58,649 nt of DNA from Candidatus Omnitrophota bacterium (GTDB lineage Bacteria > Omnitrophota > Gorgyraeia > Zapsychrales > Zapsychraceae). The position numbers were made by a program, and so were the translations under genes. The stretch's first letter is position 1. Every line of letters begins with the position of its first letter. Positions 1 to 47,587 of the stretch are shown piece after piece. Under the pieces are notes generated by a model. That model was not told where the DNA came from. It did not search any database and saw nothing but the letters and a program-made list of their open reading frames with translations. The stretch lies in contig JADFZM010000003.1 of NCBI GenBank assembly GCA_015232535.1, positions 1 to 58,649 of the forward strand, given 5' to 3'.

Positions 1-3000
1 TACAAAGTTTTTATATTTTTCAAGAAGATTCTTCCTGCGGACAAGGATAATCCTTCGGCTAAACTTGAAAGTGCGGTGAAAGTGACAGAGGGGGCAGAGA
101 CTTTATTCGAAGGGAGGCCGGCGGGAGTAGAGATGGTCGATACTTTGATATACGGTCATCCAGCTCTTTGGCCGGTGTATAAAGAAGTTGCTAATAATCC
201 TATTAAAGGGAAGAAAGTCCTAGAGGGAATAGCTGAAGCGCTTCAATCTGAAAATTATTATGAGGTAATAGCGGAGATAAAGGAAGAGCTTGCTACTGAT
301 GGGGTAAGCGACAGAGTTGATGAAGAATATTTCTCGATACCGGAAAGGGAGAGCGGAACTCTAGGGATTCAGGATAAGGCGATGTTAAGCAGGTCTCATT
401 TATCAGATGAGGAGTTAGCTGTTCTAAGGGGTTCGGATGAAGAAGCCGGATTTATCTACAAGCGTGAATATGAAGAATCTCGTGTCAGGGGTCAGATAAC
501 AAATATCCAGGAAGCCCTGCGAATAACTAACTATGATGGGCGTAAGAGGCCGGAAGATCAAAATATCAAGGAAGCATTGATTGCTCTTGATGTTGATAAA
601 GTGATTGCGTGGATTGAAAGTCCTGAAGGAAAATTCAGCGGGCAAGAGGTCCACATATTGGATGGGGTTGGCCCGGACGCTAAGGCGATAGGGAGGCTTG
701 ACCGGAAAGTTGCCGAATATTATGGATTTCCCCACGAGACTGCGAACATTGTTATGATCGCGCCGGATGGAAATGTAATTGTACAGTTGCGTAATACCGA
801 TAGATTTGATGACCATCTGGGAATGTATGGCGGGCATTTGAAGGTGGGGTCAACTCATTATGAAGGAGCGCTGGCAGAAACATTGGAAGAGACGGGATTG
901 GCCTATCTGGATTTTAATCCATCCTTTGTGGGATATGAACATTACGCTATTGATGGAGATAATAATAAGGAACGCCGGTCATGGTTTGTTAAAATTTTGA
1001 CTCAAAGGGAGTATGCCAATATTGAAATAGAAGTTAACAGGCTAAAGACTTTGAAAGACCGATATACCCGCCTGGAGGTAAAAGAAATACTCTCCGAAGC
1101 AAGGGAGAGGGTCAAAGACGGTAAGAATGAAGTTGTCGGTAAGTATCTTATTCCTTTTGCAAAATTATTAAACGCTAAGAAGAAGACTTATGTCCTGGGG
1201 AAGATAAACGGAGCTATGCCGTATGAAAATAAGCCGGTCCGGTACTTGTATGTTAGGGACGCTTATCAGGGAAGAGTAAAGCGAATTATGGCATATTTTA
1301 CTCCGGATTCTTTGGACAGATTGTTTTCCGATGAAAATAAAGGCGACCTTTTACCTAAACTTGAACAGGCTGTCAATCAAGCACGACGAGTCATTGCCGG
1401 GATCGCCAAAGATTTAATTGATCGTGACGAAAAAGACGGAATAACCGTAGAGGCTGTTCAGAGAGCTTTACATAAAAAAAACACTATCGTTTTAAATTCA
1501 GGAATAGGGCGGGATCAGCAATCTTTAGCGGAGGAAGTTGTTCAAAAAGCGAATGAGGCAAGGGGTAGAAGCAAAAAGGGAATTGTAATAACTCTTATCG
1601 GAGGCGGTGGTACGGGAAAGAGTACAACGGCACAAGCTATTGCCAAGAAATTAAACGTTACAAATGTTTATGTTGGGCTCATTTATAGAGCTTTGGCTTT
1701 AGAAATACTAAAGGAAGGTTTCACTGCTGATGCTGATACTGTTGCAAAAGCTTTGGAAGAAACACCTCCTGGTTCCTCAAAAACAAGGGCGGCGATTATC
1801 CTAGAAAAGCTTGAGCTTATCTCGGATAATAATTTTAATCCGAGCATAACTTATAACGGTCAAGATATTAATAGTGAAATTGAAGAACGACGAGTCGACC
1901 TTGAAAAGGCAATGAGCGGAACAGCCTGGAGCCAAAATCTACACAAGCAGATAGCCCATTTCTGGCTTAAAACTGTTGAAGCAGAGGTCGCTCAGGGTAA
2001 AGATGTAGTCGTAGATCTGCGCCCTAAACAAGCCGAGTTGATAAAAGACAAGAAATTAACGGTTTATTTAACCGCAGATATTCTTATCCGGGCCGGCCGC
2101 CGGGCTAATGATAATATTGAATCTAAAGGCCTAAATAATACCGAGCAATCTTATGCATCTAGCGTTGTAGTTCCGGAGCAGGCCATATCGGTAGAAGACG
2201 TTTTGGCCCCGTACTATAACAACAAAGCAAGGGTTTATTTTGATGCCGAGCAAGCCAAGGTTGACAAAATGTGGGAAGGGGCTATAGGGTCCCCGCTTGG
2301 GGCATCGGTCGGTGTCCTTAGCCAGGAATTCTATGACTGGGTTCGTATTTCCTCGGGGGAAGGAGACAGGACCACCGGCGAATTATTCGCGAACTTCATT
2401 AAGGACCGCATTCCTGCCGAGTGGATAGAATCTCTTAAGACAGACAGGGATGCTTTCATTGAATTATTTCCCGGGCACATTGAACTAACGGAAGAAGAGA
2501 TTGTTAAAGATTATCCTAAGGCTAGCCTTCATCAAAGAAAGACGGAAATGGCTATCGAACAAATGTATGAGACCAAGAAAGGCCTTCATGCCCGATATAT
2601 TGTGGCCAATATGCCCGGGCGGTCATCCGTTGTTCAGTTGGTCGGGTTCCTTAAATTTATGGGGGTACCACATGATAAGATATTAATTCATCCCGAGCCA
2701 ACAAAAGAAGCAAAGATAGCATGGTATGAAAAGCTACTCGGGAAAGTAATAGACGAGGTAGATTCGATCGTTTTTATCCCGGTATCAAATGCCGATATTA
2801 GTCCTGCCCTGAATCCCAGCCCAGATAAGCAGTCTACGATCTACCCTTCTGAAAGCCAGCTTAAGATGAGGGTTAGTAATCAAACGGGCTTTGGAGGGAT
2901 TATCAAAGGAAAAGATGGCAAGAAAATTCTCGTGTTGAACATCCGTTCGATCTTTGGCGAAGCAACTAGTGATTTTGTAGATTGGCTTACACCGAAAGCC

Positions 3001-6000
3001 AAAAGTAGCGGACGGCTAAGAAAGATTGTTTTTTACGGTACGGCGGGGGCATTTAATTCTCCGGAGCCCGGGTCTATAAAGAAAAGAGTTGGTGATATTA
3101 TCGTTCCGGATCAAACTTCTATGGAGTTCTTTGACAGTGTTTTCGGCGGTCTTTTGTCATATGAAATAAGTTTTGATAATGCCGCGCTTCTAGCCAGACC
3201 ATTGACCCTGCATAAGATTGATATAGGTGATAAAGCTTTAAATGACTTTAATCAAGCTGAAAAAGAAATAATTGTTCAAGCTGTTAATGGGGTTTCGCTT
3301 ATTAAGCCGGAAAATGGCAAGCCGGTTTTAAATGCTACGACTGCTAATGTTGGAAACGAAACGGCCCGAATGGTTAGGCAGTTGCGCGGAAGCGGAGCTG
3401 AAGCGGCTGACATGGAGTTGTATTATTTGGTGAAAGGCATAGGTGAGATTAATGCTTCTCGCTCTTCAGGGGAAAAGATTCAGTTTTCAACAATGCTAAG
3501 AGTTGCAGATATTCCCGGAACTAAACAAGGAACGGATGCCAATATAAAAAGCCGAGATGATAGAGTTGTTAAGAAGATAAGAGAAATTATTAGTGACCAG
3601 GTTTTTACCTCCATAAGGGAGTTTTTTGATCAAGCCATGGTTCCCGATGGCATTCCAGTCTTGCCTTCGGGGAGTGACAGGGCTATGTTGGCTGATAAAA
3701 GAGATTTAAAAGAATACCAGGAAGTGGTTGCAAAGTATTCTAACAAGAAGAATAGCAAGGGGGAATTAGTCCCTAAAGATGTTAGCGGGGCTAGAATAAA
3801 GTTTGATGAAAAGACTTTAAAATCTTTGCCCTTTAGGGGAAACACGGTTGTTGTATGGTTTGATGAAGAAACAAATCAAAAATTTGTCGAGATAAAAAAG
3901 AGAATACAGGAAAAATTATCGCAACTGACTCGCCAGGACCATAAGCGCTATGGCGAAATGATGAATAAAGTGGCTTTTGTTGATGATAGATCATTTCATC
4001 TTACGCTTTTTGACTTAATCAATCCTGATGATTTTAGTAGCTTATCAGCTGAACAAAGAGAAATAAAAATTAAGGCAGTAAACGAGCAAATACGACAAGT
4101 CTTTGCTTCCTTGAGAGCAGAGGGTAGGCTGGCTCCTATTCAAGTAGGGGTTGACGCTTTAGGTTCATTTATGCCTTTTACGTATTCTTTACTAATTGCT
4201 TTGAGTACTCCCAGAAAACAAGAAGACCTAGATCGTATTAATTATATTAGAGAAGAAATAAGTAAAGCAACAGGGATTGTTTTGGCTAAGCCTTTTGTTG
4301 CCCATAGTACTTTGGGGTATATCGTTAATCCTATGAATGTTGAAGAGTATGCGGCGTACAAGAAAATTGTTGATGAGGTTATGGATGATCCGCAATTTAA
4401 GTTTGAGATTGAATTGGGTAACTTGGAATTACGTTTATTTGAGACCATGGATGATTATGGCGAAAATTCCGTTGATAAAGTTGATTTAGCGATGTATTCG
4501 GTCTTAGATATTAATGATCCCAAGAGTTCTGAAATTGCTTTGGTTGGAGGAAAGGCTGCCAGCTTAAAAGAGCTTGGCTCTATACCTGGGATCAGAGTTC
4601 CCGCCGGATTCAATGTTACAACGAAAGTTTACGCGGATTATCTGGAGCAGATCGGCGCTGCTCCCTATATAGCTAAACTTGAAGATTTCTCTGAACAGTG
4701 GAAAGTTCTTCCAGAGAATGAACCAGGCCGTGAAGCTCTGACAATTGAAATGCGCAGGTTGTCGGAAGAAATTCAAGCTATTATTTTAAGCGGAGAGATC
4801 CCCGAGGAGGTACTAGGTTTAATCTTGGAGTCATATAGAAGTTTGGATAAAGAAGGGCTGCCGGCCCTGGTTGCCGTTCGCTCTTCTGCAACAGCAGAAG
4901 ATATGCCAGGGGCATCATTTGCTGGGCAGTACAAGACTTATTTGAATCAGCAGGGTGATGCAAAGGTCATTGAGGCGATTAAGAAAGTTTGGGCTTCAAC
5001 CTACAATATGAACGCTATTGAATATCGTAACAAGCAGAATATGCAGCATAGTAAGAATAAAATGTGTGCGCTGATACTTGAAATGGTAAATCCCCAATCG
5101 GCGGGGACAGCGTTTTCTGTTGATACAGAAACAGGGGCGCCTTTTATAAGCCTTAATAATACATATGGTCTGGGCGAGGCAGAGGTTTCTGGCATCGTCA
5201 CGTCAGACACTTGGGTTATTGACCCGCAAACTAACACTATTCTCAAACGACGACTAGGCAAGAAAAACGTAAAGATTGTTTATGATCCCGAGAAAAGAGA
5301 GAATGTCATTTTGGAAAACTCTGAACGAGAAAGTAACAGATTCGCGATCAGTACTATTACGGCAAAAGAAATAGCAAGGCAGGTTAGAATTATCCATGAA
5401 CATTATACGAAGAAATCAGTAGATATTAAGTATATTGACGCAGAGTATGTCGTAACAAGCACGGGCGACGTTGTTTTTACACAAACTAGGCCGGAAACGG
5501 TCTGGGGAAAAGGCCGGGCAAAATTGTTAGCTGTAGATAAAGAGAAGGCAAGAAGTTATCCAGTTATTCTGGAGGGAGGGGTTACAGGCTCTTCGGGAGT
5601 GGCGACAGGAGTTATTAGAATTGTTCGTTCAGTAGAAGATGCCGCTAAATTTATTGAGCCAGGGGACATCATGGTCGCGCCCAATACAACCAATGTTTGG
5701 GAACACTCAATGGGGCTGGCCGGGGGCATCATTACAGAAGTTGGAGGAAATGGTAATCACACTGCTGTTGTGTCAAGAGAACAGGGAAAGCCGGCTATAG
5801 TCGGGAACTCTAATGCTATTGAAATACTAAAAGAATATGATAATCAGGAAGTCACTATAGATGCTACCTTAAAGAGAGTTTATTTAGGGGCGGTTCCTTC
5901 GGAATATTTCTATAGCCCTGATAAAATTCAGCCGCTTTATGGTGGCCTATACAGTGAAACCTTGGAGGATGGTTGGGAGGCCGCGAGTAAAACCGGGCAA

Positions 6001-8094
6001 ACTCATCTGGACTCAGAGGGAGGACGGTGGATTGGAAAGCCGAATGTTCCGGTCGGAGAATTTATGGGTATAATTTTTCAAAGAAATCATCGTTGGATTG
6101 CGGAACGATTAAAATCTCCTATTCGGGATAGATTTGAAAACAATATCTATCAAGTAAATTTCGAAGACATCTATCAATGGATGGAAAGGATTCAAGGCAT
6201 GAGCTTTGAGGAATTAGAGGCTATCCATATCGAAAAGATACAAACGATAAAAGAGTATTTAGAAAAAAGCAACGATCTTGAGTTGACAGAGGCGTCTATC
6301 CGCGAGTGGATAGATGTTTTTATTCGTATGAACGCCTATATGGGATTTGCATACAATTTTTATAAAATCACTGAAGGGATGCTGGAGGATGCTTTAAAGG
6401 AAAAAGCTATCCCTGAGCCATATTTTTCTCAGGTTCGACAAGGCATGAGTGTTATTTTTGGCGCGACAGAAGCTACCGAGAGATTAAAAGATTATAGAAA
6501 ACTTTTAGCCCTTTTAAGTAAAGACGGCGGTCAGCTTTTGAAAACATTGCAAGAGGCTTTGGCGGCCGGTAATTTTCTTGAGCTTGAAAAGTTATATCCC
6601 CAGTTCTATGAGTTACTTTTTTATCATGCGACTAATTACAAGGCTTCGAAAAGCATAGATGCTACTTTTTTTAGCGAACCTCCGCTTGCAGTAGTTGTTA
6701 AAGAGCTTATTCGTGATATCGAAGACAAAAGAATAATTAGAATCAATGAGCCGACTGCTGAGAATTTTTATCCTGATGACTACGAGTTTCAAAGGATTGC
6801 CCGGCTGGCTTTAATATCCGAGAAAGTTAGGCAGGATTCGCATCATATTAAGGCAAGAGGACAGTGGAAATTCGCAGAAGTTCTAAAACCGTTGGCGGTA
6901 TTCTTGATAGAAAAAGGAGAGATCGAGGCATTTGGAGATATTTTTGATCATTCTCCGGAGTGGATAATGGAAAAGGTCGCTGATTATGAAAAGGCGCGGC
7001 CGGCTGGAGATAAAGATAATCCCGTTTTTCATATTAAACCGTATGAGATACAGGATTTGATAGCAACTAATGATGATATGATCGGGAATGAGACTATTGA
7101 TGAAGCCATGCTTACGAGTATGGGTCGTTGGAAATTTGACTCAGTTCAGTGGATGGAGGCCTCAAGACAATTGGTACTTGTGAATGCTGCGCGCATAGAA
7201 GAGGTCGTTAAACCGGAATTCTTGGAAAAAGGACAGCATTCTTCTAGAGATATTGTTTTAACACCAAGAGAGTTGAATGATAAGGAGCATACCAAGATAG
7301 ATGGCCTTGCAGGTGGCCTAGGGATCGATAGTGCCAAGGTCATTGTTATTAAACTGGATCAGGTAGCGGCTTTTCATAGAATTTATGGGTTATATTCGGA
7401 TGGTGTTTTATTTATTAGAGAAGATATTCTCTCTGAGGGCAATCAGGATCAGATTAAAGAAGCCTTGGATCATTTGCGCTTAAAGCCAACAGGATTGAGT
7501 TATGAGGAATTAAAGAAGATCCAGTATCATGGGGACTTGAGAAGCCTTATAACGAAACTTTCTAATCGGACAATAAAATGGAAATTATTGTTTTCGTTGT
7601 ACGGCGAAAAGGAAGCAGAACTCTTGATGAGTGGGGTAACAGAGCAATCGATCAAAGACGCTATCATAAGGGCGATTTCGGAACAGTTGGGTGCCGCGAA
7701 ATTAGAATACCAAGAACAGGTAGCTCGTTTACGCAGCGATGCGCTATTTTACGATGGCGTAACAAGAGAGATGGTCAGGAATAAAGCGGGATTTATTCAA
7801 GCTGTCGATATTTTTAACAAAATGAATGATAGAGCAGTATTAGGTAAAGGCAAGATTGATAAGGCATCTTTATCCGATGTCGGAGGCGTTGATTTTAACA
7901 ATATTCGCGTAAACCGCATGGGTAATAACATCGATATTAAATTTAAACCCGCTCAAATGCAGGATATCCTTAATAATGGCATCGATGGTTTTGTCCCGGT
8001 CATTATTGATATAATTCCTCTTATGAATATTTTGCCAATCTTGGGCTTGGAGCCGGCGGATAAAGAGGAATTTAATGTGTCTAGTTTAAATTAG
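1..8094 (+). CDS. Giant multidomain protein, 5'-partial (at least 2697 codons in window). It is a fusion of Nudix-like, cytidylate-kinase-like, nucleoside phosphorylase/nucleosidase-like, 2H phosphoesterase and PEP-utilising (ATP-grasp + phosphohistidine swivel) domains, a long helical region, and a conserved 70-aa C-terminal module.
   Basis: The track ORF 76..8094 begins at a GTG. The same frame is stop-free back to nt 1 (YKVFIFFKKILPADKDNPSAKLESAV-KVTEG...) and no convincing RBS precedes nt 76, so the gene most likely starts upstream of the window. Domain motifs are listed as separate features. Confidence 0.9.
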   Translation, partial: YKVFIFFKKILPADKDNPSAKLESAVKVTEGAETLFEGRPAGVEMVDTLIYGHPALWPVYKEVANNPIKGKKVLEGIAEALQSENYYEVIAEIKEELATDGVSDRVDEEYFSIPERESGTLGIQDKAMLSRSHLSDEELAVLRGSDEEAGFIYKREYEESRVRGQITNIQEALRITNYDGRKRPEDQNIKEALIALDVDKVIAWIESPEGKFSGQEVHILDGVGPDAKAIGRLDRKVAEYYGFPHETANIVMIAPDGNVIVQLRNTDRFDDHLGMYGGHLKVGSTHYEGALAETLEETGLAYLDFNPSFVGYEHYAIDGDNNKERRSWFVKILTQREYANIEIEVNRLKTLKDRYTRLEVKEILSEARERVKDGKNEVVGKYLIPFAKLLNAKKKTYVLGKINGAMPYENKPVRYLYVRDAYQGRVKRIMAYFTPDSLDRLFSDENKGDLLPKLEQAVNQARRVIAGIAKDLIDRDEKDGITVEAVQRALHKKNTIVLNSGIGRDQQSLAEEVVQKANEARGRSKKGIVITLIGGGGTGKSTTAQAIAKKLNVTNVYVGLIYRALALEILKEGFTADADTVAKALEETPPGSSKTRAAIILEKLELISDNNFNPSITYNGQDINSEIEERRVDLEKAMSGTAWSQNLHKQIAHFWLKTVEAEVAQGKDVVVDLRPKQAELIKDKKLTVYLTADILIRAGRRANDNIESKGLNNTEQSYASSVVVPEQAISVEDVLAPYYNNKARVYFDAEQAKVDKMWEGAIGSPLGASVGVLSQEFYDWVRISSGEGDRTTGELFANFIKDRIPAEWIESLKTDRDAFIELFPGHIELTEEEIVKDYPKASLHQRKTEMAIEQMYETKKGLHARYIVANMPGRSSVVQLVGFLKFMGVPHDKILIHPEPTKEAKIAWYEKLLGKVIDEVDSIVFIPVSNADISPALNPSPDKQSTIYPSESQLKMRVSNQTGFGGIIKGKDGKKILVLNIRSIFGEATSDFVDWLTPKAKSSGRLRKIVFYGTAGAFNSPEPGSIKKRVGDIIVPDQTSMEFFDSVFGGLLSYEISFDNAALLARPLTLHKIDIGDKALNDFNQAEKEIIVQAVNGVSLIKPENGKPVLNATTANVGNETARMVRQLRGSGAEAADMELYYLVKGIGEINASRSSGEKIQFSTMLRVADIPGTKQGTDANIKSRDDRVVKKIREIISDQVFTSIREFFDQAMVPDGIPVLPSGSDRAMLADKRDLKEYQEVVAKYSNKKNSKGELVPKDVSGARIKFDEKTLKSLPFRGNTVVVWFDEETNQKFVEIKKRIQEKLSQLTRQDHKRYGEMMNKVAFVDDRSFHLTLFDLINPDDFSSLSAEQREIKIKAVNEQIRQVFASLRAEGRLAPIQVGVDALGSFMPFTYSLLIALSTPRKQEDLDRINYIREEISKATGIVLAKPFVAHSTLGYIVNPMNVEEYAAYKKIVDEVMDDPQFKFEIELGNLELRLFETMDDYGENSVDKVDLAMYSVLDINDPKSSEIALVGGKAASLKELGSIPGIRVPAGFNVTTKVYADYLEQIGAAPYIAKLEDFSEQWKVLPENEPGREALTIEMRRLSEEIQAIILSGEIPEEVLGLILESYRSLDKEGLPALVAVRSSATAEDMPGASFAGQYKTYLNQQGDAKVIEAIKKVWASTYNMNAIEYRNKQNMQHSKNKMCALILEMVNPQSAGTAFSVDTETGAPFISLNNTYGLGEAEVSGIVTSDTWVIDPQTNTILKRRLGKKNVKIVYDPEKRENVILENSERESNRFAISTITAKEIARQVRIIHEHYTKKSVDIKYIDAEYVVTSTGDVVFTQTRPETVWGKGRAKLLAVDKEKARSYPVILEGGVTGSSGVATGVIRIVRSVEDAAKFIEPGDIMVAPNTTNVWEHSMGLAGGIITEVGGNGNHTAVVSREQGKPAIVGNSNAIEILKEYDNQEVTIDATLKRVYLGAVPSEYFYSPDKIQPLYGGLYSETLEDGWEAASKTGQTHLDSEGGRWIGKPNVPVGEFMGIIFQRNHRWIAERLKSPIRDRFENNIYQVNFEDIYQWMERIQGMSFEELEAIHIEKIQTIKEYLEKSNDLELTEASIREWIDVFIRMNAYMGFAYNFYKITEGMLEDALKEKAIPEPYFSQVRQGMSVIFGATEATERLKDYRKLLALLSKDGGQLLKTLQEALAAGNFLELEKLYPQFYELLFYHATNYKASKSIDATFFSEPPLAVVVKELIRDIEDKRIIRINEPTAENFYPDDYEFQRIARLALISEKVRQDSHHIKARGQWKFAEVLKPLAVFLIEKGEIEAFGDIFDHSPEWIMEKVADYEKARPAGDKDNPVFHIKPYEIQDLIATNDDMIGNETIDEAMLTSMGRWKFDSVQWMEASRQLVLVNAARIEEVVKPEFLEKGQHSSRDIVLTPRELNDKEHTKIDGLAGGLGIDSAKVIVIKLDQVAAFHRIYGLYSDGVLFIREDILSEGNQDQIKEALDHLRLKPTGLSYEELKKIQYHGDLRSLITKLSNRTIKWKLLFSLYGEKEAELLMSGVTEQSIKDAIIRAISEQLGAAKLEYQEQVARLRSDALFYDGVTREMVRNKAGFIQAVDIFNKMNDRAVLGKGKIDKASLSDVGGVDFNNIRVNRMGNNIDIKFKPAQMQDILNNGIDGFVPVIIDIIPLMNILPILGLEPADKEEFNVSSLN
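700..1010 (+). other. Nudix-hydrolase-like domain within ORF1 (degenerate Nudix box)
   Basis: The segment IVMIAPDGNVIVQLRNTDRFDDHLGMYGGHLKVGSTHYEGALAETLEETGL (box at 829..900) resembles GX5EX7REUXEEXGU. The spacing is off by one and the box Arg is replaced by Ala (AETLEETGL). Confidence 0.55.
1576..2110 (+). other. Cytidylate kinase (CMK)-like P-loop domain within ORF1
   Basis: The Walker A motif is IVITLIGGGGTGKSTTAQAIAKKL (1600..1623). It is followed by VYVGLIYRALAL (compare CMK xDTGAMYRA) and a distal KLTVYLTADILIRAGRRAND (compare CMK FLTAsxexRAxRR). Confidence 0.7.
2920..3520 (+). other. Nucleoside phosphorylase / nucleosidase (PNP_UDP_1-like) domain within ORF1
   Basis: Three motifs fit this superfamily: KILVLNIRSIFGEA, IVFYGTAGAFN...VGDIIVPDQ (glycine-rich loop + GDxxV), and GAEAADMELYYL (compare the xDMEsaa motif). 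Confidence 0.5.
3840..4480 (+). other. 2H phosphoesterase (LigT / cyclic phosphodiesterase-like) domain within ORF1
   Basis: Two H-x-T/S-x motifs occur at the expected ~100-aa spacing: SFHLTLFDL (His codon 3997..3999) and VAHSTLGYI (His codon 4303..4305). Confidence 0.65.
4490..5510 (+). other. PPDK_N-type ATP-grasp (pyruvate phosphate dikinase / PEP synthase N-terminal) domain within ORF1
   Basis: The domain carries VGGKAASLKELGSIPGIRVPAGFNVTT and the near-canonical VAVRSSATAEDMPGASFAGQYKTYLN, and ends at FTQTRPETVW. Confidence 0.9.
5570..5890 (+). other. PEP-utilising enzyme mobile (phosphohistidine swivel) domain within ORF1
   Basis: Motifs are GSSGVATGVIRIV, GDIMVAPNTTNVWEHSM and GGIITEVGGNGNHTAVVSREQGKPAIVG. 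The putative phospho-His codon is at 5758..5760. Confidence 0.85.
7882..8091 (+). other. Conserved 70-aa C-terminal module (copy 1), shared with ORF2
   Basis: The sequence is GGVDFNNIRVNRMGNNIDIKFKPAQMQDILNNGIDGFVPVIIDIIPLMNILPILGLEPADKEEFNVSSLN-stop. It aligns with the last 70 aa of ORF2. Confidence 0.8.
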
Positions 8095-8182: not shown

Positions 8183-8296
8183 ATGACATTTCACTTCCAA
8201 AATTTTAAATCCAACAAACTAAACAGGGGCTTAGGCTTTCTAGCCGCCTTCTTTCTAGTACTTGAATCCATTCTTTCTCCCGTTGCTTCTTATGCG
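8183..8296 (+). other. Sec-type signal peptide (or signal anchor) of ORF2
   Basis: In MTFHFQNFKSNKLNRGLGFLAAFFLVLESILSPVASYA|QS there is a basic n-region, a hydrophobic core and an A-x-A-like SYA site. ORF3 carries the same SYAQ junction. Confidence 0.7.
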
Positions 8297-11200
8297 CAAA
8301 GTGTTTATGATCTTCCGGCTGTAGGCGCTCAGGTTAATTTAAGCCAAAGCTTCGCCCCGGCGGTATTAAAAGGGATCAGGATCGACCCCAAAGAGCCGCT
8401 AAACTTTGATTTCATCGTCGATGCCGGCGATTCCGGATTAAAAGACGCGGAGTTAAAGAAAGAATCCGAAAAACTTATTAAATATTTCCTCGCCTCATTG
8501 ACCGTCCCTAAAGACGAGCTTTGGGTCAATTTATCCCCTTATGAAAAAGACCGCATAATCCCCGATTCGCTTTCCCAAACCGATATGGGACGCGACCTTC
8601 TCGCCCAGGATTATATCTTAAAGCAATTAACCGCGGCTTTGGTTTATCCGGAGGATGAACTGGGGGCAAAATTTTGGGAAGAGGTTTATTCTAAAGTTAA
8701 AACAAAATACGGCGCTAAAGACCTGCCGGTCAATACCTTGTCTAAGGTATGGATAATCCCGGATAAAGCGACTATATACGAGAAGAACAACACTGCTTAT
8801 ATCGTTGATTCCCATCTAAAGGTAATGCTTGAGGAGGATTATGTAGCCATGGATAAACAGAAAGCCATGGCGGAATCCCGCGATTCCTCGCGGGACAGTG
8901 ATTTACAAAGGACGAACGGGGAAATAAACAATATTCTGCGTTCGATCATAATCCCGGCAATTGAAAAAGAAGTTAATACCGGAAAGAATTTTGCTAATTT
9001 AAGGCAAGTTGTTAATTCTCTTATTTTGGCAACCTGGTATAAAACCAATTTAAAAGAAAGTTTACTTGGAAAAGTTTACGTCGATAAGAATAAAATATTT
9101 GGCATTGTTACCGCAGATGAGAATTTTAAAGAGAAAATATACAACCGTTATTTAGAAGCTTTAGAGGCCGGAGCAAGGAATTATATCAGAGAAGATTACG
9201 ATCCCAAGACTCGGCAGCTTGTTCCGCGCAAATATTTTGTTGGGGGATTAAACTTAGAAGGAATCGGATATCGCTCCTCTTCTGCGGACAATGAAAAAAT
9301 TAATCGTTTAAGCCCTGGGCCTGTATCAGAAATCAATCTGACTTTAAGAACGGATAGAAATATGCTTTCGGGGATCGAGAAGAAAGCCCCCGCATTAAGC
9401 CGGTTTAATGACCTTAAGATTGTTTCTTGGCAAAATGGAGCAATGATTGCCGAAGGTTATATTGATGATCCCAACGAAAAGATTTTGGTAAAATTACTGA
9501 CTGACGATTCTTTGAAAAATAAAAGAGAGTTTGCGGTTTATGAAGAATTACTTGCCCATGATTCTTCTTTAAGTTTTCTTGAATTATTTCCTTCATATGA
9601 AGGTCAGGCAGTTCTTGAATCTTCTGATTTAAATCTTCCTTTGTTTGCGGGTAAAATCGGCCTTAGTGAAGGAACAAAATATTTTGTTGTCAGAAAAGCA
9701 CAAGGGGTAAATATCAGAGAAAGAATCGTTGAATTAAAAGAAAAACTTCAAGGCGCTCATTCATTGGAAGCAGATGAACATGTTATCGGAGATTTATATT
9801 CGATTATAGATGCAATTAAAAGGCTTCATGCTAGAGGAATAATCCTAAAAAATCTAAGGGCTGATAATATATTAATTGATCCCCGAAAGAATTCGATTAC
9901 GATAGACGTAGTTTCATCTCTTTCCATCGCAGATGCCCATAATTCCGAAATAGATATTTATGGCGGGCAAAGAAAAACCTACCAACAGGGAAATAAATTG
10001 CTTTATTATGGAAAAGCCGATATAGAAAGTTTCGATGAAATAGCGTTATTGTACTCGGAAGGTTTATTAAGCTCAAAGTCTTCTTTAATATCGAGCTTGT
10101 CAAGCCTAAGGTTATCAGCGGCCGAGTTCTTTTATAAAACCAGCGACCCTTATGAATTATCCGAGGTAGTTCCATCAATAGGGGCTGATGAGATATTGCT
10201 TTTGTTGGCTAATAAAAGAAATAATATCGGTGTATGGAATCAATCCCGAAAGATAAGAGAATTAGGGGCAGAAAAAGGTGGAGAAGCGGTATTAGAGCTA
10301 AGAAAATTGTTAAATCCTTTAAAAACCCAGGAACCTCGCTTACGTTCGGCGGCCCTTGATGGTTTGATGGCGACAAATTCTCCATTGTCCGTTAGGGCAA
10401 TTGCCACCGCATTGAAGGATCCCGACCGTTTTGTTAAAAGATCGGCAGCCAGTTATTTGGGGAATTTTCCCAGAAGTAAAGTAGCGGTAAAGGCCTTGAT
10501 CAAGGCATTAGCGGACCCAGACAGCGCGGTTTTTGAGAATGCTCTTGATTCCATAAGTAAGATTGGAGACGAAGATACTATTGTTGAATTGAATATTCTA
10601 CGTTCGGGAGAGCCTAAGATAATGACGTTTTCAAGATTTGATGATCATGGAGGGATGATCAGATATACTAAAAAACCAGTTTACACAGGCTACAACGCCC
10701 AAAAATTGACTTATCAAGGAGAGGAGACCATTGAAAATCCCAGGGTCTCTCAATATTCTAAAACAATCGCAGATCTGCAGAGGAAATTAAAGGAGGAAAG
10801 ATTAAAAAGGAAAATCAATTTAGAAGAAGTTAAAGATAAAAGAATCCCAGCATTCTTCAAATGGCTTGAAGAAAAAGGCCTCGCAGATTATTTTGTTATA
10901 GTCGGCGGAGGCGTCCGCGATCTTTATACGGGAGAGATGCTTAACGATCTAGATATTGGAATAAAAGTAGAATTAACGGATGAAGAAAGGCTGCAGTTTA
11001 TAACTCCCATTAATCAGGCTACTGAAAGGGTTTGGCAATATTCAATGGATAAGCTAAAGTTATTGGCTGATGCCTTAGGTGAGGATGTAAATGTGTTCTT
11101 GCCGCCCCTTTTTGGGAAGAAATCAGTCTTCTGGAGCGATGGCAAGAACCCCACTATAGAAATACAATATACCGGCCCTATAAGACAGGTTGATTCAGAA

Positions 11201-13705
11201 GACGGCACTCCTATTTATATTAAAAGATCCTTATTTGATGAGAATGATCGTTCAGTCTATCTTACTAGGACCAATGCGGCGCTATTATCGACCGGGATTG
11301 ACTCTAGAGGTAACATTTATGGGAGGGTTAGCGCTTTTGATGATTTTGATAACGGTATCGCTCAATTAGCCGGAGATGGTGATAACTTTGATATAGGGGC
11401 CATAATGCGTTTTTTACGGCTCAAATATCAGTTCGGCTTGAAAATTACTCAGGATGATTATTCCTTGGTTCAAGAACAAATAAAGAGGTATTTATCGGAC
11501 GATTCGGAAATCCCCAGCGTTATAATTTATTTTGTTTTGAGCCGGCAGATAGAAAGGCTTCTTGCAACAGCCAAAGACAAAGATGCCGCGCATCTGGAAT
11601 TGGAAAGGCTAGGCATTTATAAATTATTGGACTTGGGAAAACACCGCCAAATAAAGCCGGAAGAAATTGAAGCTTGGGGATTGAATATTGCCCCGGCCTT
11701 AGAAGCGGCAATTATGGAAATTTCTGATATAAGAAAAAGTAGGCAGCGAGAAATATTAAAGTCCAGCTTATTGAATATATTAAATGTGCAAAGTAAGCCG
11801 ATAACGAAGAGGAGGCTTTTTGAGATTCTAAGGATTAATCCAGACTTTGCGAAAGTAAATTTCAGGGAAGTTCTTCAAACTATTGCTTATTATTCTATTT
11901 TAGCCAATCACATCTATTTACTAAGAAAACCATCTCTCTCTGACCTTGCGGAAGAAAGAGCTAATGCTGTGCCGGGATCGGGCGTGACAAATTCAAGATT
12001 ACGTTTTAGCATGGATGATGTCACAAATGTTATTATAAATCCTGAAGTATTAGAATATGATTTTGGTATAAGCTTCGATGAGTTGACTGATGAGGAGATT
12101 TTATTATTGGCTAAAACACCTTATCCCGCTATCGGGCAGACGCTAGGTTTGACTATAGCCGAAAATACCAAGTTAAACCTAAAGCAGTTATTGGAATTAT
12201 TGGAGATCAGGGATAATAGCCTAACAGAAATTGTCTTAGAGAATATTGTATCCAGGTTTAAAGGAGCTACTAATTTAAAAGATACGCTGCAGAGTAGGAT
12301 GCTGCTTATAAGAAATGAGCTAAGAGCTGCCCGTCTTTTGCGTTATGAATGGCTTAAGACTAATACGGATATAGTAGATAAATATAGCCTATCTTTTGTT
12401 GCTAATAATGAATATGCAGGGCTTAGAAATAAGGCCAAGAAATTTAAGGATGAAATTATTCTATATGCCAAAGCCATAGCCAAGCTGGACGGAAAAGACA
12501 CAGTTGTTCACGGTTCAGCGATGAATGTGGTTTTTAATCCTCTAGGTAATTTCCTGCCTCATTCATCAGCGCGATTAAATAGAAATATTGGCATGATAAA
12601 AATAGAGCAATTGCTGGATAAGGAATCAGAAATGGCACCTGTGTGGTCAAGATTAGACTCGGATGAATTATATTTATCCGAGAGAGAGGTCACTGGCGGG
12701 GATTCAGGAATAAATCAGGTCAGAGTCAAGAAATATATAAGGTATAGGGAAAGGAAGACCGGAAAGCTATACTATTCGACCCAATATGAAAAGGCCCAGA
12801 TGTTCTCGGTGATTTCCAGTTATTTGTTCTTTAGGTTGATCGGGCTACCAATCCGCCCGACATTTGTTTTAAGAAAAGAAGACGGAGAGCCGATTCTTTT
12901 AAGAGAGATAATTCACAACAGTTCGCCTTTGGACGAATACAAGATAGTTTTCGGCGAAGATGCTATACAATTTGCTTCCGTATGGAGGAGGCTGTTAAAG
13001 GGGGCGCTATTGGCGGACAATGTTCTGGGCCATCGCGGCCGGGGCCAAGACACTATTTCAATTATCACCAACGCGGATGGCTCGAAAAAACCCTTTTTTG
13101 ATGAAATGAGAAGTGCATTCGGGATTCCCGATGTTATTGATGATAAAATCCCTATTAGCGAGCAGGTAAATTATAATTTCTCCGATAACGTTGTTTCGCT
13201 GCCGGACCGGCAGGTAACGGCAGGAGTATCCGGGCTTTTCCCCGATGAATTATCAGCAAATCCTTATCAATCTAAGGCCCGGCATGCTGACCTGGCCTGG
13301 ATGGCAGGATATTTAAAGCAGGTAACCCCTGAACAATTGCGGGGAATTTTGGATTACGCGAATAAAGCTGTCCCGAATAATGGATTGGATGTTGAGGCGA
13401 TTTTTATGGAATGGCAAAAGGCTTTAGATAAAGTCCGGGAGATATATCCGGATAAAGCGCAATTATCCAACCGAAATTCTCAAGAGACCCCCGGCGGTAT
13501 CGACCTGAATCCGGATAATATAACGATGGATATTAAATCCGATGGGTTAAAGCCGCGCTTTGAGTTCTCCCCCGATATCCTTGAAGCTTATCCAATAAGG
13601 GGGTTTGAGCCGGTCATTATCAATATCTCTCCCATAAACAGCCTGCCTTTATACTTAGGGATCATTAAGGCAGAAGGCGAGATGAGTATAAGCCGCCTTA
13701 ATTGA
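8183..13705 (+). CDS. Giant secreted or membrane-anchored multidomain protein (1840 aa). It has a signal peptide, a conserved N-module, a pseudokinase-like domain, HEAT repeats, a CCA/polyA-polymerase-type nucleotidyltransferase, ~680 aa of unassigned sequence, and the conserved 70-aa C-terminal module.
   Basis: This is one long uninterrupted ORF whose ATG follows an 88-nt AT-rich spacer after ORF1. Domain motifs are listed separately. Confidence 0.92.
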   Translation: MTFHFQNFKSNKLNRGLGFLAAFFLVLESILSPVASYAQSVYDLPAVGAQVNLSQSFAPAVLKGIRIDPKEPLNFDFIVDAGDSGLKDAELKKESEKLIKYFLASLTVPKDELWVNLSPYEKDRIIPDSLSQTDMGRDLLAQDYILKQLTAALVYPEDELGAKFWEEVYSKVKTKYGAKDLPVNTLSKVWIIPDKATIYEKNNTAYIVDSHLKVMLEEDYVAMDKQKAMAESRDSSRDSDLQRTNGEINNILRSIIIPAIEKEVNTGKNFANLRQVVNSLILATWYKTNLKESLLGKVYVDKNKIFGIVTADENFKEKIYNRYLEALEAGARNYIREDYDPKTRQLVPRKYFVGGLNLEGIGYRSSSADNEKINRLSPGPVSEINLTLRTDRNMLSGIEKKAPALSRFNDLKIVSWQNGAMIAEGYIDDPNEKILVKLLTDDSLKNKREFAVYEELLAHDSSLSFLELFPSYEGQAVLESSDLNLPLFAGKIGLSEGTKYFVVRKAQGVNIRERIVELKEKLQGAHSLEADEHVIGDLYSIIDAIKRLHARGIILKNLRADNILIDPRKNSITIDVVSSLSIADAHNSEIDIYGGQRKTYQQGNKLLYYGKADIESFDEIALLYSEGLLSSKSSLISSLSSLRLSAAEFFYKTSDPYELSEVVPSIGADEILLLLANKRNNIGVWNQSRKIRELGAEKGGEAVLELRKLLNPLKTQEPRLRSAALDGLMATNSPLSVRAIATALKDPDRFVKRSAASYLGNFPRSKVAVKALIKALADPDSAVFENALDSISKIGDEDTIVELNILRSGEPKIMTFSRFDDHGGMIRYTKKPVYTGYNAQKLTYQGEETIENPRVSQYSKTIADLQRKLKEERLKRKINLEEVKDKRIPAFFKWLEEKGLADYFVIVGGGVRDLYTGEMLNDLDIGIKVELTDEERLQFITPINQATERVWQYSMDKLKLLADALGEDVNVFLPPLFGKKSVFWSDGKNPTIEIQYTGPIRQVDSEDGTPIYIKRSLFDENDRSVYLTRTNAALLSTGIDSRGNIYGRVSAFDDFDNGIAQLAGDGDNFDIGAIMRFLRLKYQFGLKITQDDYSLVQEQIKRYLSDDSEIPSVIIYFVLSRQIERLLATAKDKDAAHLELERLGIYKLLDLGKHRQIKPEEIEAWGLNIAPALEAAIMEISDIRKSRQREILKSSLLNILNVQSKPITKRRLFEILRINPDFAKVNFREVLQTIAYYSILANHIYLLRKPSLSDLAEERANAVPGSGVTNSRLRFSMDDVTNVIINPEVLEYDFGISFDELTDEEILLLAKTPYPAIGQTLGLTIAENTKLNLKQLLELLEIRDNSLTEIVLENIVSRFKGATNLKDTLQSRMLLIRNELRAARLLRYEWLKTNTDIVDKYSLSFVANNEYAGLRNKAKKFKDEIILYAKAIAKLDGKDTVVHGSAMNVVFNPLGNFLPHSSARLNRNIGMIKIEQLLDKESEMAPVWSRLDSDELYLSEREVTGGDSGINQVRVKKYIRYRERKTGKLYYSTQYEKAQMFSVISSYLFFRLIGLPIRPTFVLRKEDGEPILLREIIHNSSPLDEYKIVFGEDAIQFASVWRRLLKGALLADNVLGHRGRGQDTISIITNADGSKKPFFDEMRSAFGIPDVIDDKIPISEQVNYNFSDNVVSLPDRQVTAGVSGLFPDELSANPYQSKARHADLAWMAGYLKQVTPEQLRGILDYANKAVPNNGLDVEAIFMEWQKALDKVREIYPDKAQLSNRNSQETPGGIDLNPDNITMDIKSDGLKPRFEFSPDILEAYPIRGFEPVIINISPINSLPLYLGIIKAEGEMSISRLN
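8297..9247 (+). other. Conserved ~320-aa N-terminal module (copy 1), shared with ORF3
   Basis: Long runs are identical with ORF3: KLIKYFLASLTVP, WVNLSPYEKDR, MGRDLLAQDYILKQLT, LVYPEDELG, SHLKVMLEED, IEKEVN.GKNFA.LRQ, NLKESLLG, PRKYF.GG. Confidence 0.85.
9420..10060 (+). other. Protein-kinase-like domain of ORF2, probably a pseudokinase
   Basis: ILVKLL matches a VAIK-like Lys and FAVYEEL matches the alpha-C Glu. The catalytic-loop region LHARGIILKNLRADNILID (9826..9880) aligns to HxxGixHRDLKpxNILxD, with HRD replaced by LKN (catalytic Asp to Asn). TIDVV sits at the DFG position. Confidence 0.55.
10250..10595 (+). other. HEAT / PBS-lyase-type repeats in ORF2
   Basis: The segment LRSAALDGLMATNSPLSVRAIATALKDPDRFVKRSAASYLGNFPRSKVAVKALIKALADPDSAVFENALDSISKIGDEDTI shows the repeated (A/L)L.DPD..VR..A pattern. 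Confidence 0.7.
10840..11460 (+). other. tRNA nucleotidyltransferase / poly(A) polymerase family head domain (PolyA_pol-like) in ORF2
   Basis: YFVIVGGGVRDLYTGEMLNDLDIGIKV (10889..10966) matches the GGxVRDxLLGxxxxDxD signature. The downstream IMRFLRLKYQFGLKI matches the RxxRFxxxxgF helix motif. Confidence 0.8.
13493..13702 (+). other. Conserved 70-aa C-terminal module (copy 2), shared with ORF1
   Basis: The sequence is GGIDLNPDNITMDIKSDGLKPRFEFSPDILEAYPIRGFEPVIINISPINSLPLYLGIIKAEGEMSISRLN-stop. Confidence 0.8.
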
Positions 13706-14057: not shown

Positions 14058-14363
14058 ATGCGTCCAAAAAAAACAAGATGGGTTAAATGCGAGCCGGGGG
14101 AAAGATGCTTCCGCCCCCGTTGTAAGCCATTAAATAAAGTTGAAGGCGTTTTTTTGACGTTGGATGAATTTGAAGCCATTCGATTGGCTGATTTCGAGCA
14201 ATTACAACAAATTGATGCGGCTAAGATGATGCGTATTTCTCGCCCGACTTTTTCTCGGATTCTTTCTTCTGCGCATAACAAAATAGCGGATGGTTTAGTA
14301 AATATAAAAGCGATAAAAATTGAAGGCGGTTGTTGCAAAATTGAAGAAGCGAGGGATAAATGA
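14058..14363 (+). CDS. DUF134 (UPF0251) family predicted DNA-binding protein, candidate regulator of the ars operon
   Basis: [20 protein letters not shown]...[59 protein letters not shown] is the typical DUF134 pattern with a sigma-70 region-4-like HTH. The stop overlaps the acr3 start (ATGA). Confidence 0.8.
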
Positions 14364-15406
14364 CGATGGGGTTTATAAAAAAACTTTCTTTACTTGATAG
14401 GTTTTTGACTTTATGGATTATTTTGGGGATGACCTCGGGTGTGGGGGTAGGATATTTCTATCCGCCCATTGTGAAGTTCTGGAACAAGTTCCACTTCGGC
14501 ACTACCAACATTCCCATTGCCATTGGTCTTATTTTGATGATGTATCCGCCTTTGGCAAAGGTTAAATATGAGGAATTAGGTGATGTATTTAGGGATAAGA
14601 AAATATTAGGTCTTTCTTTGATACAGAATTGGTTAATCGGGCCGGTGTTAATGTTTTTATTAGCAATAACATTTCTACATGGCTATCCCGAATATATGGT
14701 TGGTCTTATCATGATTGGCTTGGCGCGTTGCATTGCCATGGTTATTGTCTGGAGTGATTTGGCCGGAGGAGATACCGAGTATTGCGCGGGGTTGGTAGCG
14801 TTTAACTCAATATTTCAGGTTCTGTTCTTTTCCGCTTATGCTTGGGTATTTGTTACGATCTTGCCGGGTTGGTTTGGTTTAAAAGGTACGACAGTTAATA
14901 TTACTATGGGCCAGATTGCCGAAAGTGTTTTTATTTATTTAGGGATTCCATTTTTAGCGGGTATTATCACAAGATTTACTCTTATACGTTTTAAGAGTAA
15001 AGAGTGGTATCAGAATAAATTCATTCCCGCGATCAGTCCGGTAACCTTAATCGCTCTACTGTTTACGATTTTTGTAATGTTCTCGCTTAAAGGTGAATAT
15101 ATTGTAAAAATTCCTTTGGATGTTATGCGCATAGCGGTGCCGCTTCTGATTTATTTTGTAGTGATGTTTTTAGTTTCATTCTATATTGGTAAGAATTTTA
15201 ATGCCGGATATCCAAAAACAGCAACTTTGTCATTCACTGCCGCCAGTAATAACTTTGAACTTGCTATTGCCGTGGCTGTTGCGGTGTTTGGCATAAATTC
15301 CGGAGTGGCATTTGCCGCTGTTATCGGCCCTTTGGTGGAAGTTCCCGCCCTTATCGGACTGGTTAATGTTTCACTTTATTTTAAAAAGAGATATTTCCAT
15401 GAGTAA
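14360..15406 (+). CDS. acr3: Arsenite efflux permease, ACR3 family
   Basis: [38 protein letters not shown] and [19 protein letters not shown] are characteristic of ACR3. The protein is polytopic (~10 TM). An alternative ATG lies at 14366. Confidence 0.9.
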
Positions 15407-15821
15407 GGAAAGAGTTTTATTTGTCTGTATTCATAATTCCGCAAGGTCTCAAATGGCGGAGGCATTTTTAAAGCAGTTGGCTGGAGACAAATTTGATGTC
15501 GATAGTGCTGGACTTGAGCCTGGAAAACTCAATCCGATTGTCGTTGAGGTAATGAAAGAAGTCGGGATTGATATTTCCCAAAACAAGACCAAAAGCGTCC
15601 TCGACCTTTTGAAGGAGAGCAAGCTTTATAGTTATGTTATTACAGTCTGCGACCAATCGCAATCCCAAAAATGTCCTATCTTTCCAGGAGTAGCTAAACG
15701 ACTTCACTGGAGCTTTGTTGATCCTTCGAGTTTTCAGGGCAGTTGGGAAGAGAAATTAACGAGGACCAGAATTGTCCGTGAGCAGATAAGACAAAAGATT
15801 AGAGAATGGTTGCAAAGGTAG
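15399..15821 (+). CDS. arsC: Arsenate reductase, LMW-PTP / thioredoxin-coupled type
   Basis: [23 protein letters not shown] is a CX5R(S) P-loop, and [17 protein letters not shown] supplies the distal Cys pair. I place the start at ATG 15399 (8-nt overlap with acr3) rather than the track start 15312, whose extra N-terminus lies inside acr3. Confidence 0.88.
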
Positions 15822-25897: not shown

Positions 25898-26530
25898 ATG
25901 GCTAATCTTATACGCGCTATTTTCTTTGTTTGTGTAATCCGCCCAATTATGGGTTTTTTCATCGGCCTTAGGGTGCGAGGGAGAGAAAACTTGCCCCAAA
26001 AGCACCCGTTTATTATTATCGCCAATCATTCGAGCCATCTCGATACAGTCGCTATCATGAATCTTTTCCCGTTAAAATTCTTAAGCAGGATTCATCCGGT
26101 TGCTGCCGCTGATTATTTTAATCGCAATACAATAGTTTCATTCGTAAGCAGATTGTTTTTCAATATCTTACCTATCGAACGTAAACACATTTGCCATAAT
26201 CGGAATCCTCTTGATGCTATTTCAGCTATTCTTGCGGCGGGGAGCAGTATAATTCTTTTCCCTGAGGGGACGCGTTCTTTATCCGGCGAAATAGCTCCTT
26301 TCCATTCCGGCATTGCCCATGTAGCTAAGCAATTTCCCATCGTCCCCATAATCCCTGTTTACATGTCGAACATGTGGAGGGCTTTGCCGAAAGGGGAGTT
26401 TATTATTTTACCGTTTATATGCGAGATGAATATCGGGAAGCCTATTTATCCTGATGGTTCGAAAGAAGAAATAATGGAGATATTGCGCAATACTATTGTT
26501 CGGCTAAAAGGGGAGTCTTCTTGGCAATAA
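25898..26530 (+). CDS. plsC: 1-acyl-sn-glycerol-3-phosphate (lysophospholipid) acyltransferase
   Basis: The motifs are IIIANHSSHLDT (HX4D), FPEGTRS, and a downstream PIIPVYM block. Confidence 0.85.
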   Translation: MANLIRAIFFVCVIRPIMGFFIGLRVRGRENLPQKHPFIIIANHSSHLDTVAIMNLFPLKFLSRIHPVAAADYFNRNTIVSFVSRLFFNILPIERKHICHNRNPLDAISAILAAGSSIILFPEGTRSLSGEIAPFHSGIAHVAKQFPIVPIIPVYMSNMWRALPKGEFIILPFICEMNIGKPIYPDGSKEEIMEILRNTIVRLKGESSWQ

Positions 26531-32770: not shown

Positions 32771-32802
32771 TAAATACGATCTATCAAGAAAGCACATCCT
32801 TT

Positions 32803-41463: not shown

Positions 41464-41473
41464 GAAAAGAGCG

Positions 41474-45646: not shown

Positions 45647-45654
45647 AGCATCCT

Positions 45655-47570: not shown

Positions 47571-47587
47571 AATTAATGGAGTTAGAT

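Follow-up and report, generated by a model that had tools for sequence, protein, structure and literature searches.

A conserved N-terminal module and C-terminal tail in a large family of putatively exported, variable-cargo proteins of Omnitrophota

Several described systems place conserved sequence at the ends of proteins which otherwise differ. In two-partner secretion (TPS), the TpsA exoproteins (FHA, HMW1, CdiA) carry a TPS domain (PF05860), a conserved segment of approximately 250–300 residues located immediately after the Sec signal of huge and variable proteins. Several paralogues per genome are common and the domain serves as a shared secretion handle. MARTX toxins have conserved N- and C-terminal regions around interchangeable enzymatic effector domains. 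The C-terminal sorting signals, namely the C-terminal domain (CTD) of the type IX secretion system (T9SS), LPXTG/sortase, PEP-CTERM/exosortase and GlyGly-CTERM/rhombosortase, combine an N-terminal Sec signal with a C-terminal motif and a hydrophobic stretch on proteins with unrelated middles. Spidroins have small conserved terminal domains around a long variable core, with purifying selection across ancient paralogues. The bacteria of the phylum Omnitrophota are widespread, uncultivated and ultra-small; their giant proteins are unexplained, as is the location of cytoplasm-type enzymes beyond a signal peptide. Here an N-terminal module is described which is shared by two genes, ORF2 and ORF3, of a Candidatus Omnitrophota bacterium (assembly GCA_015232535.1, contig JADFZM010000003.1; the whole stretch analysed, 58,649 nucleotides, is referred to as the window). 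The two proteins belong to a family whose members mostly also end in a conserved tail, and the family resembles each of the above systems in the features just listed. With the giant proteins of Omnitrophota (10.1101/2023.11.21.568195; 10.64898/2026.06.07.730766) it shares the phylum, the palette of cargo domains and the presence of cytoplasm-type enzymes beyond a signal peptide.

ORF2 and ORF3 are separated by 42 kb containing ordinary genes. An earlier reading, made from the sequence alone, had proposed that the two proteins are collinear from the signal peptide to a shared PRKYF-x-GG boundary, that similarity is lost abruptly beyond it and that the copies are old paralogues held by selection and not a recent duplicate or an artefact. 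Comparison of ORF2 with ORF3 using BLASTP gave a single high-scoring segment pair, ORF2 residues 1–370 against ORF3 residues 1–373, with 51% identity over 375 aa, 69% positives and an E value of 3e-122, and no second pair was found below E 0.2. In windows of 40 residues the identity was 0.23 for residues 1–40, the signal-peptide window, 0.45–0.78 for residues 41–360 and only 0.03–0.30 beyond residue 360. The coordinates proposed for the two blocks, 8183..9247 (355 codons, last residues LVPRKYFVGG) and 55846..56919 (358 codons, last residues IIPRKYFSGG), are exact, both ending in PRKYF(V/S)GG. All six runs of identical residues which had been quoted were found in the alignment and the quoted synonymous codon differences were reproduced letter for letter.

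For 370 aligned codons the nucleotide identity is 58% and the Nei–Gojobori method gave pS 0.796, pN 0.322 and dN 0.42. The same codon is used at 83 of the 183 identical residues with degenerate codons, where 74.4 would be expected from the codon usage of both genes. As pS is above the Jukes–Cantor limit, dS is saturated and therefore no numerical dN/dS can be obtained, but the ratio is clearly far below 1. Given that the synonymous sites are randomised and that pN is low, the modules of ORF2 and ORF3 are ancient paralogues under purifying selection with an age at the limit of the synonymous record. A recent duplication, gene conversion or an assembly artefact is excluded by the 58% nucleotide identity together with the randomised synonymous sites. 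Thus the evolutionary part of the sequence-only reading was borne out in full.

An alignment of 38 family members contains approximately 45 invariant columns within the module. The charged, aromatic and other invariant positions include N116, E121, D143, K147, K188, E217, D219, E263, N265, R274, Q275, K287 and R349, and the tryptophans W114, W165, W190 and W285. Every invariant column is present in both ORF2 and ORF3, and both give a full-length match to the defining motifs, WVNLSPYE, TEMGRDLLAQDY, LRQ…W-K and PRKYFSGG, at the far N-terminal end of the protein. Among the 38 aligned sequences His, Cys and Ser provide no invariant column; S118 is invariant only in a set of 42 members. The mature modules of the 93 best-scoring tailed representatives, a sample biased to consensus-like sequences, are 53–97% identical with a median of 63%. 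An AlphaFold2 (AF2) model built with 38 homologues has an alpha+beta structure with a mean predicted local distance difference test score (pLDDT) of 74.9, most of the core being at 80–95, and a predicted template modelling score (pTM) of 0.70. It contains a short beta-hairpin (61–80) and helices at 88–107, 134–153 and 159–176, followed by a long beta-hairpin (189–216), a disordered variable insert (228–241), helices at 239–266, 271–290 and 315–334 and two short strands before PRKYFSGG. No hydrophobic segment is found within the module, the signal peptide being the only one.

The sequence-only reading had recognised no named domain in the module and none was found. Pfam-A and NCBIfam at their curated cut-offs gave no match to the module, just scattered sub-threshold chance ones. 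A relaxed Pfam scan of the 38 members gave sub-threshold matches to DUF896 (seven members), DUF5095 (five) and SurA_N_3 (two), which are taken as chance. Searches of PDB sequences, with a single sequence and with a profile, gave no match to the module, and Foldseek searches of PDB and BFVD gave nothing at E ≤ 1e-3, the best TM-scores being below 0.25. None of these resources thus gave a significant match to a known domain, and the model, which has no counterpart among solved structures, makes the module a candidate for a new fold in that sense only.

A word-indexed homologue search, which apparently reaches proteins up to approximately 1.75 times the query length (≤630 aa for a 360-aa query), found 1,274 relatives. 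Among the 120 matches listed, identities are 48–57% and almost all of the named ones are hypothetical proteins of Candidatus Omnitrophota/Omnitrophica. The long members come from a search with a profile against 1.84 billion cluster representatives (50% identity), which gave 8,400 matches at E ≤ 1e-3 and 6,793 at E ≤ 1e-30. So many module-bearing clusters exclude a private duplication of two genes. In the best 150 of the 8,400 the module lies at approximately residues 1–375 of proteins 420–5,312 aa long; it begins within the first 30 or so residues in nearly all (at up to 64 in two) and is one unbroken stretch in 149 of the 150. At least 589 module loci were confirmed in contigs from one genome per species. 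Each of these with a resolved name is from Omnitrophota, the remainder being metagenome-assembled genomes (MAGs) labelled ‘uncultured Planctomycetales’, ‘Planctomycetales bacterium’ or ‘bacterium’. Among the best 79 loci there are up to four per MAG, and 11 of these loci, 3.5–13 kb in length, hold two module genes, mostly side by side. Tandem copies are thus common in other genomes. On these counts the module family is very large and, as judged from the resolved names, specific to Omnitrophota, and it is among the largest lineage-specific families of the phylum.

The module is preceded in both proteins by the features of a Sec-type signal peptide, that is a basic n-region, an h-region of 10–15 residues and small residues at −3 and −1. 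The n-region has a net charge of +3 in ORF2 and +4 in ORF3 and is followed by a 15-residue hydrophobic core at residues 17–31, with Kyte–Doolittle values of 2.3–3.0, and then by P-x-x-S-Y-A↓Q (P-V-A-S-Y-A↓Q in ORF2). The assignment is a rule-based reading of this pattern. The position of the predicted cleavage site follows from these rules and from the near-invariant A-Q in the family alignment, where A38 and Q39 each reach a conservation of 90% or more; in other members the site reads (S/T/V/A)-x-A↓Q. Export by Sec with cleavage of the signal before Gln is thus predicted for ORF2, ORF3 and the family.

The regions which follow the module differ from member to member. The ORF2 cargo contains a weak protein-kinase-like match near residues 496–576 (sub-threshold for Pfam Pkinase and for NCBIfam kinase-like models) and HEAT repeats at 741–802 (Pfam HEAT_2, 3.7e-10), the rest being unassigned, while the ORF3 cargo contains a weak KDPG-aldolase/TIM-barrel-like match at residues 765–889; BLASTP found no similarity between the two. 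In 41 other complete members the Pfam matches are scattered, each occurring in just one or two proteins. They include hexokinase, ROK, UDPGP (UDP-glucose pyrophosphorylase), radical SAM with B12-binding, several methyltransferases, peptidase M3, HATPase_c, response-regulator receiver, DnaJ and HAD domains. No hydrophobic segment besides the signal peptide and the tail is present in 102 of 130 members. The cargo is unrelated between members and composed of cytoplasmic-type domains.

ORF1, immediately upstream of ORF2, has at least 2,697 codons with Pfam matches to NUDIX, cytidylate kinase, PNP-like, 2H phosphoesterase, PPDK_N and PEP-utilizer domains, a nucleotide-metabolism domain chain ending in the PPDK ATP-grasp and mobile domains. 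Its listed start is a GTG at base 76, with no in-frame stop in bases 1–75. As the frame is open to base 1, ORF1 is probably cut by the window edge and the GTG is probably not the true start; for the same reason ORF1 is not taken as a case of a tail without a module. ORF1 may be a third member of the family, in tandem with ORF2.

The tails of ORF1 and ORF2 are alike over approximately 76 residues, GG(I/V)D(L/F)N…GFxPVII(N/D)IxP…LPxxLG…S(S/R)LN. The family consensus is GGI(D/N)(L/F)NPxxLxLQIKRDGNGVPLPxxxQPIxxxxIxGFxPVIINIxPxxNLPxLLG, to which ORF2 residues 1765–1840 conform. In 42 full-length members G1771, G1772, G1807, P1810, I1812 and P1817 (ORF2 numbering) are invariant. Past the tail there is a variable acidic extension of 13–98 residues (E+D 17%, K+R 9%), which ends in LN in 18 of 103 tailed representatives. 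The tail was found in these 103 out of approximately 138 long representatives, many of which are fragments, and never at an internal position in the tailed representatives. Among the complete module genes in the loci, the strict tail pattern is matched by 40 of 52 and a divergent tail is visible in at least six others, together approximately 88%. By this family rule we predict that ORF3 also ends in the tail.

The exceptions without a tail are short. Four were examined (L018, L047, L048 and the P0037 locus) and in each the tail is on a downstream ORF, indicating that the gene is split. At the P0037 locus (L080 7997..10963, JADFYJ010000014.1) a module-only gene of 504 aa precedes two further ORFs, of 215 and 259 aa, and the family tail closes the second of them. 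The arrangement is either a frame-disrupted split gene or a genuine three-ORF version. The apparent rule that short members lack the tail is therefore partly an effect of split genes and of the length range of the search. Searches with the tail itself were apparently limited to proteins up to approximately 1.75 times the 72-aa query: a single sequence gave one match and a tail profile gave fragments of ≤126 aa.

When modelled alone with AF2 the tail is a coil with pLDDT 67 and pTM 0.21, which excludes a globular domain. The hydrophobicity of its core over 19 residues (Kyte–Doolittle) is 1.8–2.1, the level of a membrane segment (2.12 for the ORF1 tail), though two or three prolines interrupt it. 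Being non-globular alone and hydrophobic, the tail looks like a signal or an anchor. The pairwise identities of modules and of tails are correlated (Spearman 0.40) beyond the maximum of 0.22 obtained in 999 permutations. This correlation shows a shared history of module and tail and possibly co-evolution. Several module columns appeared linked to the tail subtype (p ~1e-5), but these were not used since relatedness was uncontrolled.

What the analyses establish is ancient paralogy, purifying selection, a strictly N-terminal position, the features of a signal peptide, coupling to the tail, diverse cargo, restriction to one phylum and the lack of a known fold. The explanation we favour, with slightly less than even confidence, is that the module serves, after export, in the handling or docking of a family of two-ended cargo proteins. 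Each member would consist of a cleavable signal peptide, an alpha+beta module of approximately 320 residues running to PRKYFSGG, an exchangeable cargo, the tail and the variable acidic extension. The cargo part, 250 to approximately 5,000 residues of enzyme and repeat domains, is freely exchanged. The proteins would be exported via Sec and the signal cut before Gln. Once they are past the inner membrane the module would be their common handle, docking them to an apparatus of the envelope, of secretion or of the cell surface which all members share and whose genes lie elsewhere in the genome; the tail would act as a second address label. Such a mode of working would be like that of the TPS domain of two-partner-secretion exoproteins or of the conserved ends of MARTX. 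When all ORFs of the 79 loci were clustered, no recurring neighbour family was found besides family members, so a conserved neighbour acting as partner or transporter is excluded. Any partner must therefore be encoded elsewhere and act in trans on all members.

Several points weigh against this explanation. Export, cleavage and docking are all inferred from sequence features, and the clustering of neighbours in the 79 loci found no candidate partner. Cytoplasmic cargo dependent upon ATP, S-adenosylmethionine (SAM) or Fe-S clusters would lie idle or fail to assemble once outside the cytoplasm, if it were not delivered into another cell. The 45 or so invariant residues and the median identity of 63% among the 93 representatives exceed the obvious needs of a docking handle, and simple co-inheritance can suffice for the correlation between module and tail. 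The evolutionary account given by the sequence-only reading and its failure to name a domain have thus been confirmed, while the function it suggested for the module, envelope docking, translocation or chaperone binding, fits the findings and stays at the level of inference.

The very strong conservation, with so many invariant columns that are charged or aromatic, would be more readily understood if the module were itself the working part, as an enzyme, a ligand-binding domain or an adhesin acting on an envelope polymer or on a host or prey surface, with the variable regions as accessories. The compact and confidently modelled fold would also suit such a role. We regard this as unlikely, since the Pfam, NCBIfam, PDB and Foldseek searches pointed to no catalytic motif or family and since the lack of any invariant His, Cys or Ser in the 38-sequence alignment speaks against the common hydrolase triads. 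It is also harder to rationalise why one fixed activity should be joined to hundreds of enzyme sets with no relation to each other than why these should share an address.

The coupling of the two ends allows a further explanation in which module and tail are complementary assembly ends. The unstructured, hydrophobic tail would dock into an N-terminal module of the same or another molecule, much as spidroin terminal domains assemble or as strands are donated between pilus subunits in donor-strand exchange. Heterogeneous cargo proteins would in this way be linked head to tail into a coat or fibre at the cell surface, which would match the giant proteins of the phylum in a non-covalent form. Both ends nearly always co-occur, their pairwise identities correlate beyond permutation and the tail on its own is disordered, which would be expected of a segment that folds upon binding. 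The domain palette is moreover that reported for the ‘Archaeovorin’ giants, HEAT_2, HATPase_c, radical SAM, PPDK_N, NUDIX and HAD (bioRxiv 10.1101/2023.11.21.568195). However, the correlation is equally expected from co-inheritance and polymerisation is a hypothesis only, so head-to-tail assembly seems decidedly unlikely.

Cargo enzymes of cytoplasmic type would be sensible only inside a cell, and Omnitrophota have been inferred to be predators or parasites (PMC10066038). The module might then be a membrane-translocation or pore-forming domain which brings the cargo, in unfolded form, into the cytoplasm of host or prey cells, as do the T domain of AB toxins or the ends of MARTX. It is rich in helices with a long beta-hairpin, and among its highest-ranking Foldseek rows are NheA, SmhA and Cry6Aa, all alpha-pore-forming toxins, and colicin Ia. 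These rows are, however, non-significant (E ≥ 0.15, probability ≤ 0.16, TM ≤ 0.23). For the ClyA-family toxins NheA, SmhA and Cry6Aa a Foldseek comparison gave E ≥ 0.24, probability ≤ 0.06 and TM ~0.1, with no hydrophobic beta-tongue or hairpin. The module has no hydrophobic helical hairpin, its beta-hairpin 189–216 is polar and the sole hydrophobic stretch is the signal peptide, all of which makes this role very unlikely. Retention of the proteins inside the cell, with the N-terminal hydrophobic helix as a membrane tether and the module as a cytoplasmic scaffold, would account for cofactor-dependent cargo of cytoplasmic type but is hardly credible given that the charged n-region, proline-containing c-region and small-x-small site form the pattern of a cleaved Sec signal, with most of the protein outside, and that 102 of 130 members have no other transmembrane helix to return the cargo inside.

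Returning to the module as a docking domain, a bolder version is that an undescribed sorting or delivery pathway, specific to Omnitrophota, uses the N-terminal module and the tail as its two address labels for hundreds of different enzyme assemblies per lineage. This is possible but on balance doubtful. If it were true, these ultra-small bacteria, predators or parasites, would have in the family their effector or surface proteome, a modular counterpart of the giants, and cytoplasm-type enzyme assemblies would be exported, displayed or injected. Whatever the function, module and tail together provide a simple sequence definition for a very large class of presumably exported Omnitrophota proteins, whose destination, cleavage and recognition become testable with proteomes of the one enrichment culture. 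The phyletic pattern of the module across complete genomes can also serve as a key in searching for the partner machinery that is missing, and the module adds a confidently modelled domain without a detectable PDB relative. The features of the window are collected in Table 1.

Table 1. Positions in the window of ORF1, ORF2 and ORF3 and of their parts.
Feature	Position	Strand	Basis or remark
ORF1 body	1..7863	+	Pfam domains; frame open to window base 1
ORF1 C-terminal tail, VGGVDFNN…GFVPVIIDIIPLMNILPILG…SSLN	7864..8094	+	Aligns with ORF2 tail and family tail
ORF2	8183..13705	+	1840 aa
ORF2 predicted Sec signal peptide, residues 1–38, cleavage S-Y-A↓Q	8183..8296	+	Rule-based
ORF2 mature N-terminal module, residues 39–355, end PRKYFVGG	8297..9247	+	ORF3 comparison, family alignment, AF2 model
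ORF2 variable cargo, residues 356–1764	9248..13474	+	Pfam and NCBIfam scans, ORF3 comparison
ORF2 C-terminal tail, residues 1765–1840 and stop, PGGIDLNP…GFEPVIINISPINSLPLYLG…SRLN	13475..13705	+	Fits family tail consensus
ORF3	55846..58649	+	At least 934 aa; open at right window edge
ORF3 predicted Sec signal peptide, residues 1–36, cleavage S-Y-A↓Q	55846..55953	+	Rule-based
ORF3 mature N-terminal module, residues 37–358, end PRKYFSGG	55954..56919	+	ORF2 comparison
ORF3 variable cargo	56920..58649	+	Pfam and NCBIfam scans; cut at window end, C-terminus beyond window

ORF2 starts 88 nt past the stop of ORF1 and has no obvious Shine–Dalgarno sequence; this short spacing and the missing Shine–Dalgarno are compatible with co-transcription of ORF2 with ORF1. 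ORF3 follows an AT-rich intergenic stretch of 354 nt (55492..55845) and has a ribosome-binding site, AAGGAG, 8 nt 5′ of its ATG. Just three short ORFs, of 62–69 aa, are present on the opposite strand, and no Rfam RNA family matches anywhere in the window. In the family loci, 19 minus-strand ORFs of approximately 150 aa lie under the module in 18 of the loci L001–L079; this cluster is taken not as a gene but as an artefact that arises when the conserved coding sequence is read in antisense.

The genes between ORF2 and ORF3 include an arsenic-resistance-like cluster, lipid metabolism, histidine kinases, PEP carboxykinase, a DEAD helicase and a SulP permease. The arsenic-resistance-like cluster, assigned by eye (14058..15821), comprises a small DNA-binding ORF, an ACR3-type permease (14360..15406) and an ArsC of the low-molecular-weight phosphatase type, the latter a 169-aa ORF listed at 15312..15821 with its start inside the permease gene. 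Also by eye, 19339..22785 encodes an apparent fusion of 1,148 aa with an MFS-type membrane domain, a PlsC-type acyltransferase and an acyl-CoA/AMP-ligase, and its acyltransferase part is paralogous to 25898..26530 (28% identity). A hybrid sensor histidine kinase of 1,716 aa (33241..38391) has a long membrane/periplasmic N-terminal half and several receiver domains, and is preceded by two small response-regulator or Hpt-like ORFs (32414..33198). Two efflux sets are present, OEP-HlyD-MacB(ABC/FtsX)-MFS_3 at 41450..46908 and MarR-OEP-HlyD-AcrB at 47576..53384, the outer-membrane (OEP) genes and the adaptor (HlyD) genes of the two sets being paralogous, each pair approximately 23% identical. As the window encodes TolC-like, MacB and AcrB components, the organism has an outer membrane, which the family proteins would cross or decorate.

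How far the family departs from the known systems can now be stated. The module has no match to PF05860 (Haemagg_act), nor to any Pfam family at E ≤ 0.1, and whereas the TPS fold is a beta-helix the model of the module is an alpha+beta structure dominated by its eight helices. No TpsB (Omp85-type) gene lies near ORF2 or ORF3, no neighbour is conserved across the 79 loci and TpsA proteins lack a conserved C-terminal tail, which the present family has. MARTX toxins differ in that glycine-rich repeats make up their ends, a type I system exports them with no Sec signal and they contain a cysteine protease for autoprocessing; the present family shows none of these features. Since these defining features were tested and not found, the module family lies outside the TPS and MARTX families.

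Systems with C-terminal sorting signals have no N-terminal module of 320 residues, and no NCBIfam or Pfam sorting model matches ORF1 or ORF2. In particular, the tails of ORF1 and ORF2 gave no match to the T9SS CTD (TIGR04183/Por_Secre_tail), and the tail model is a coil and not a beta-sandwich. No sortase, exosortase or rhombosortase signature was matched in NCBIfam; the hydrophobic stretch of the tail is punctuated by prolines and the basic C-terminal cluster of those systems is replaced by the acidic extension of 13–98 residues.

The Archaeovorins exceed 10,000 residues and have many transmembrane helices, whereas members of the present family have 0.7–5.3 thousand residues and mostly no internal transmembrane helices. 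ORF2, with 1,840 aa and the signal peptide as its only hydrophobic segment, is not an Archaeovorin, and the palette they have in common amounts to no more than a resemblance. Of the giant genes it has been stated only that their N-terminal regions ‘generally lack identifiable domains’ (bioRxiv 10.1101/2023.11.21.568195). Spidroin ends are unrelated in sequence, fold and organism, and the assembly role which has been demonstrated for them is here only a rival hypothesis. No published description of the module or the tail was found in the Omnitrophota papers that were searched and read, including 10.1101/2023.11.21.568195 and 10.64898/2026.06.07.730766, and neither is represented in the curated libraries of Pfam and NCBIfam. 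The logic of conserved terminal address domains around interchangeable cargo is known from these other systems, and the parts with which Omnitrophota would carry it out appear to be new.

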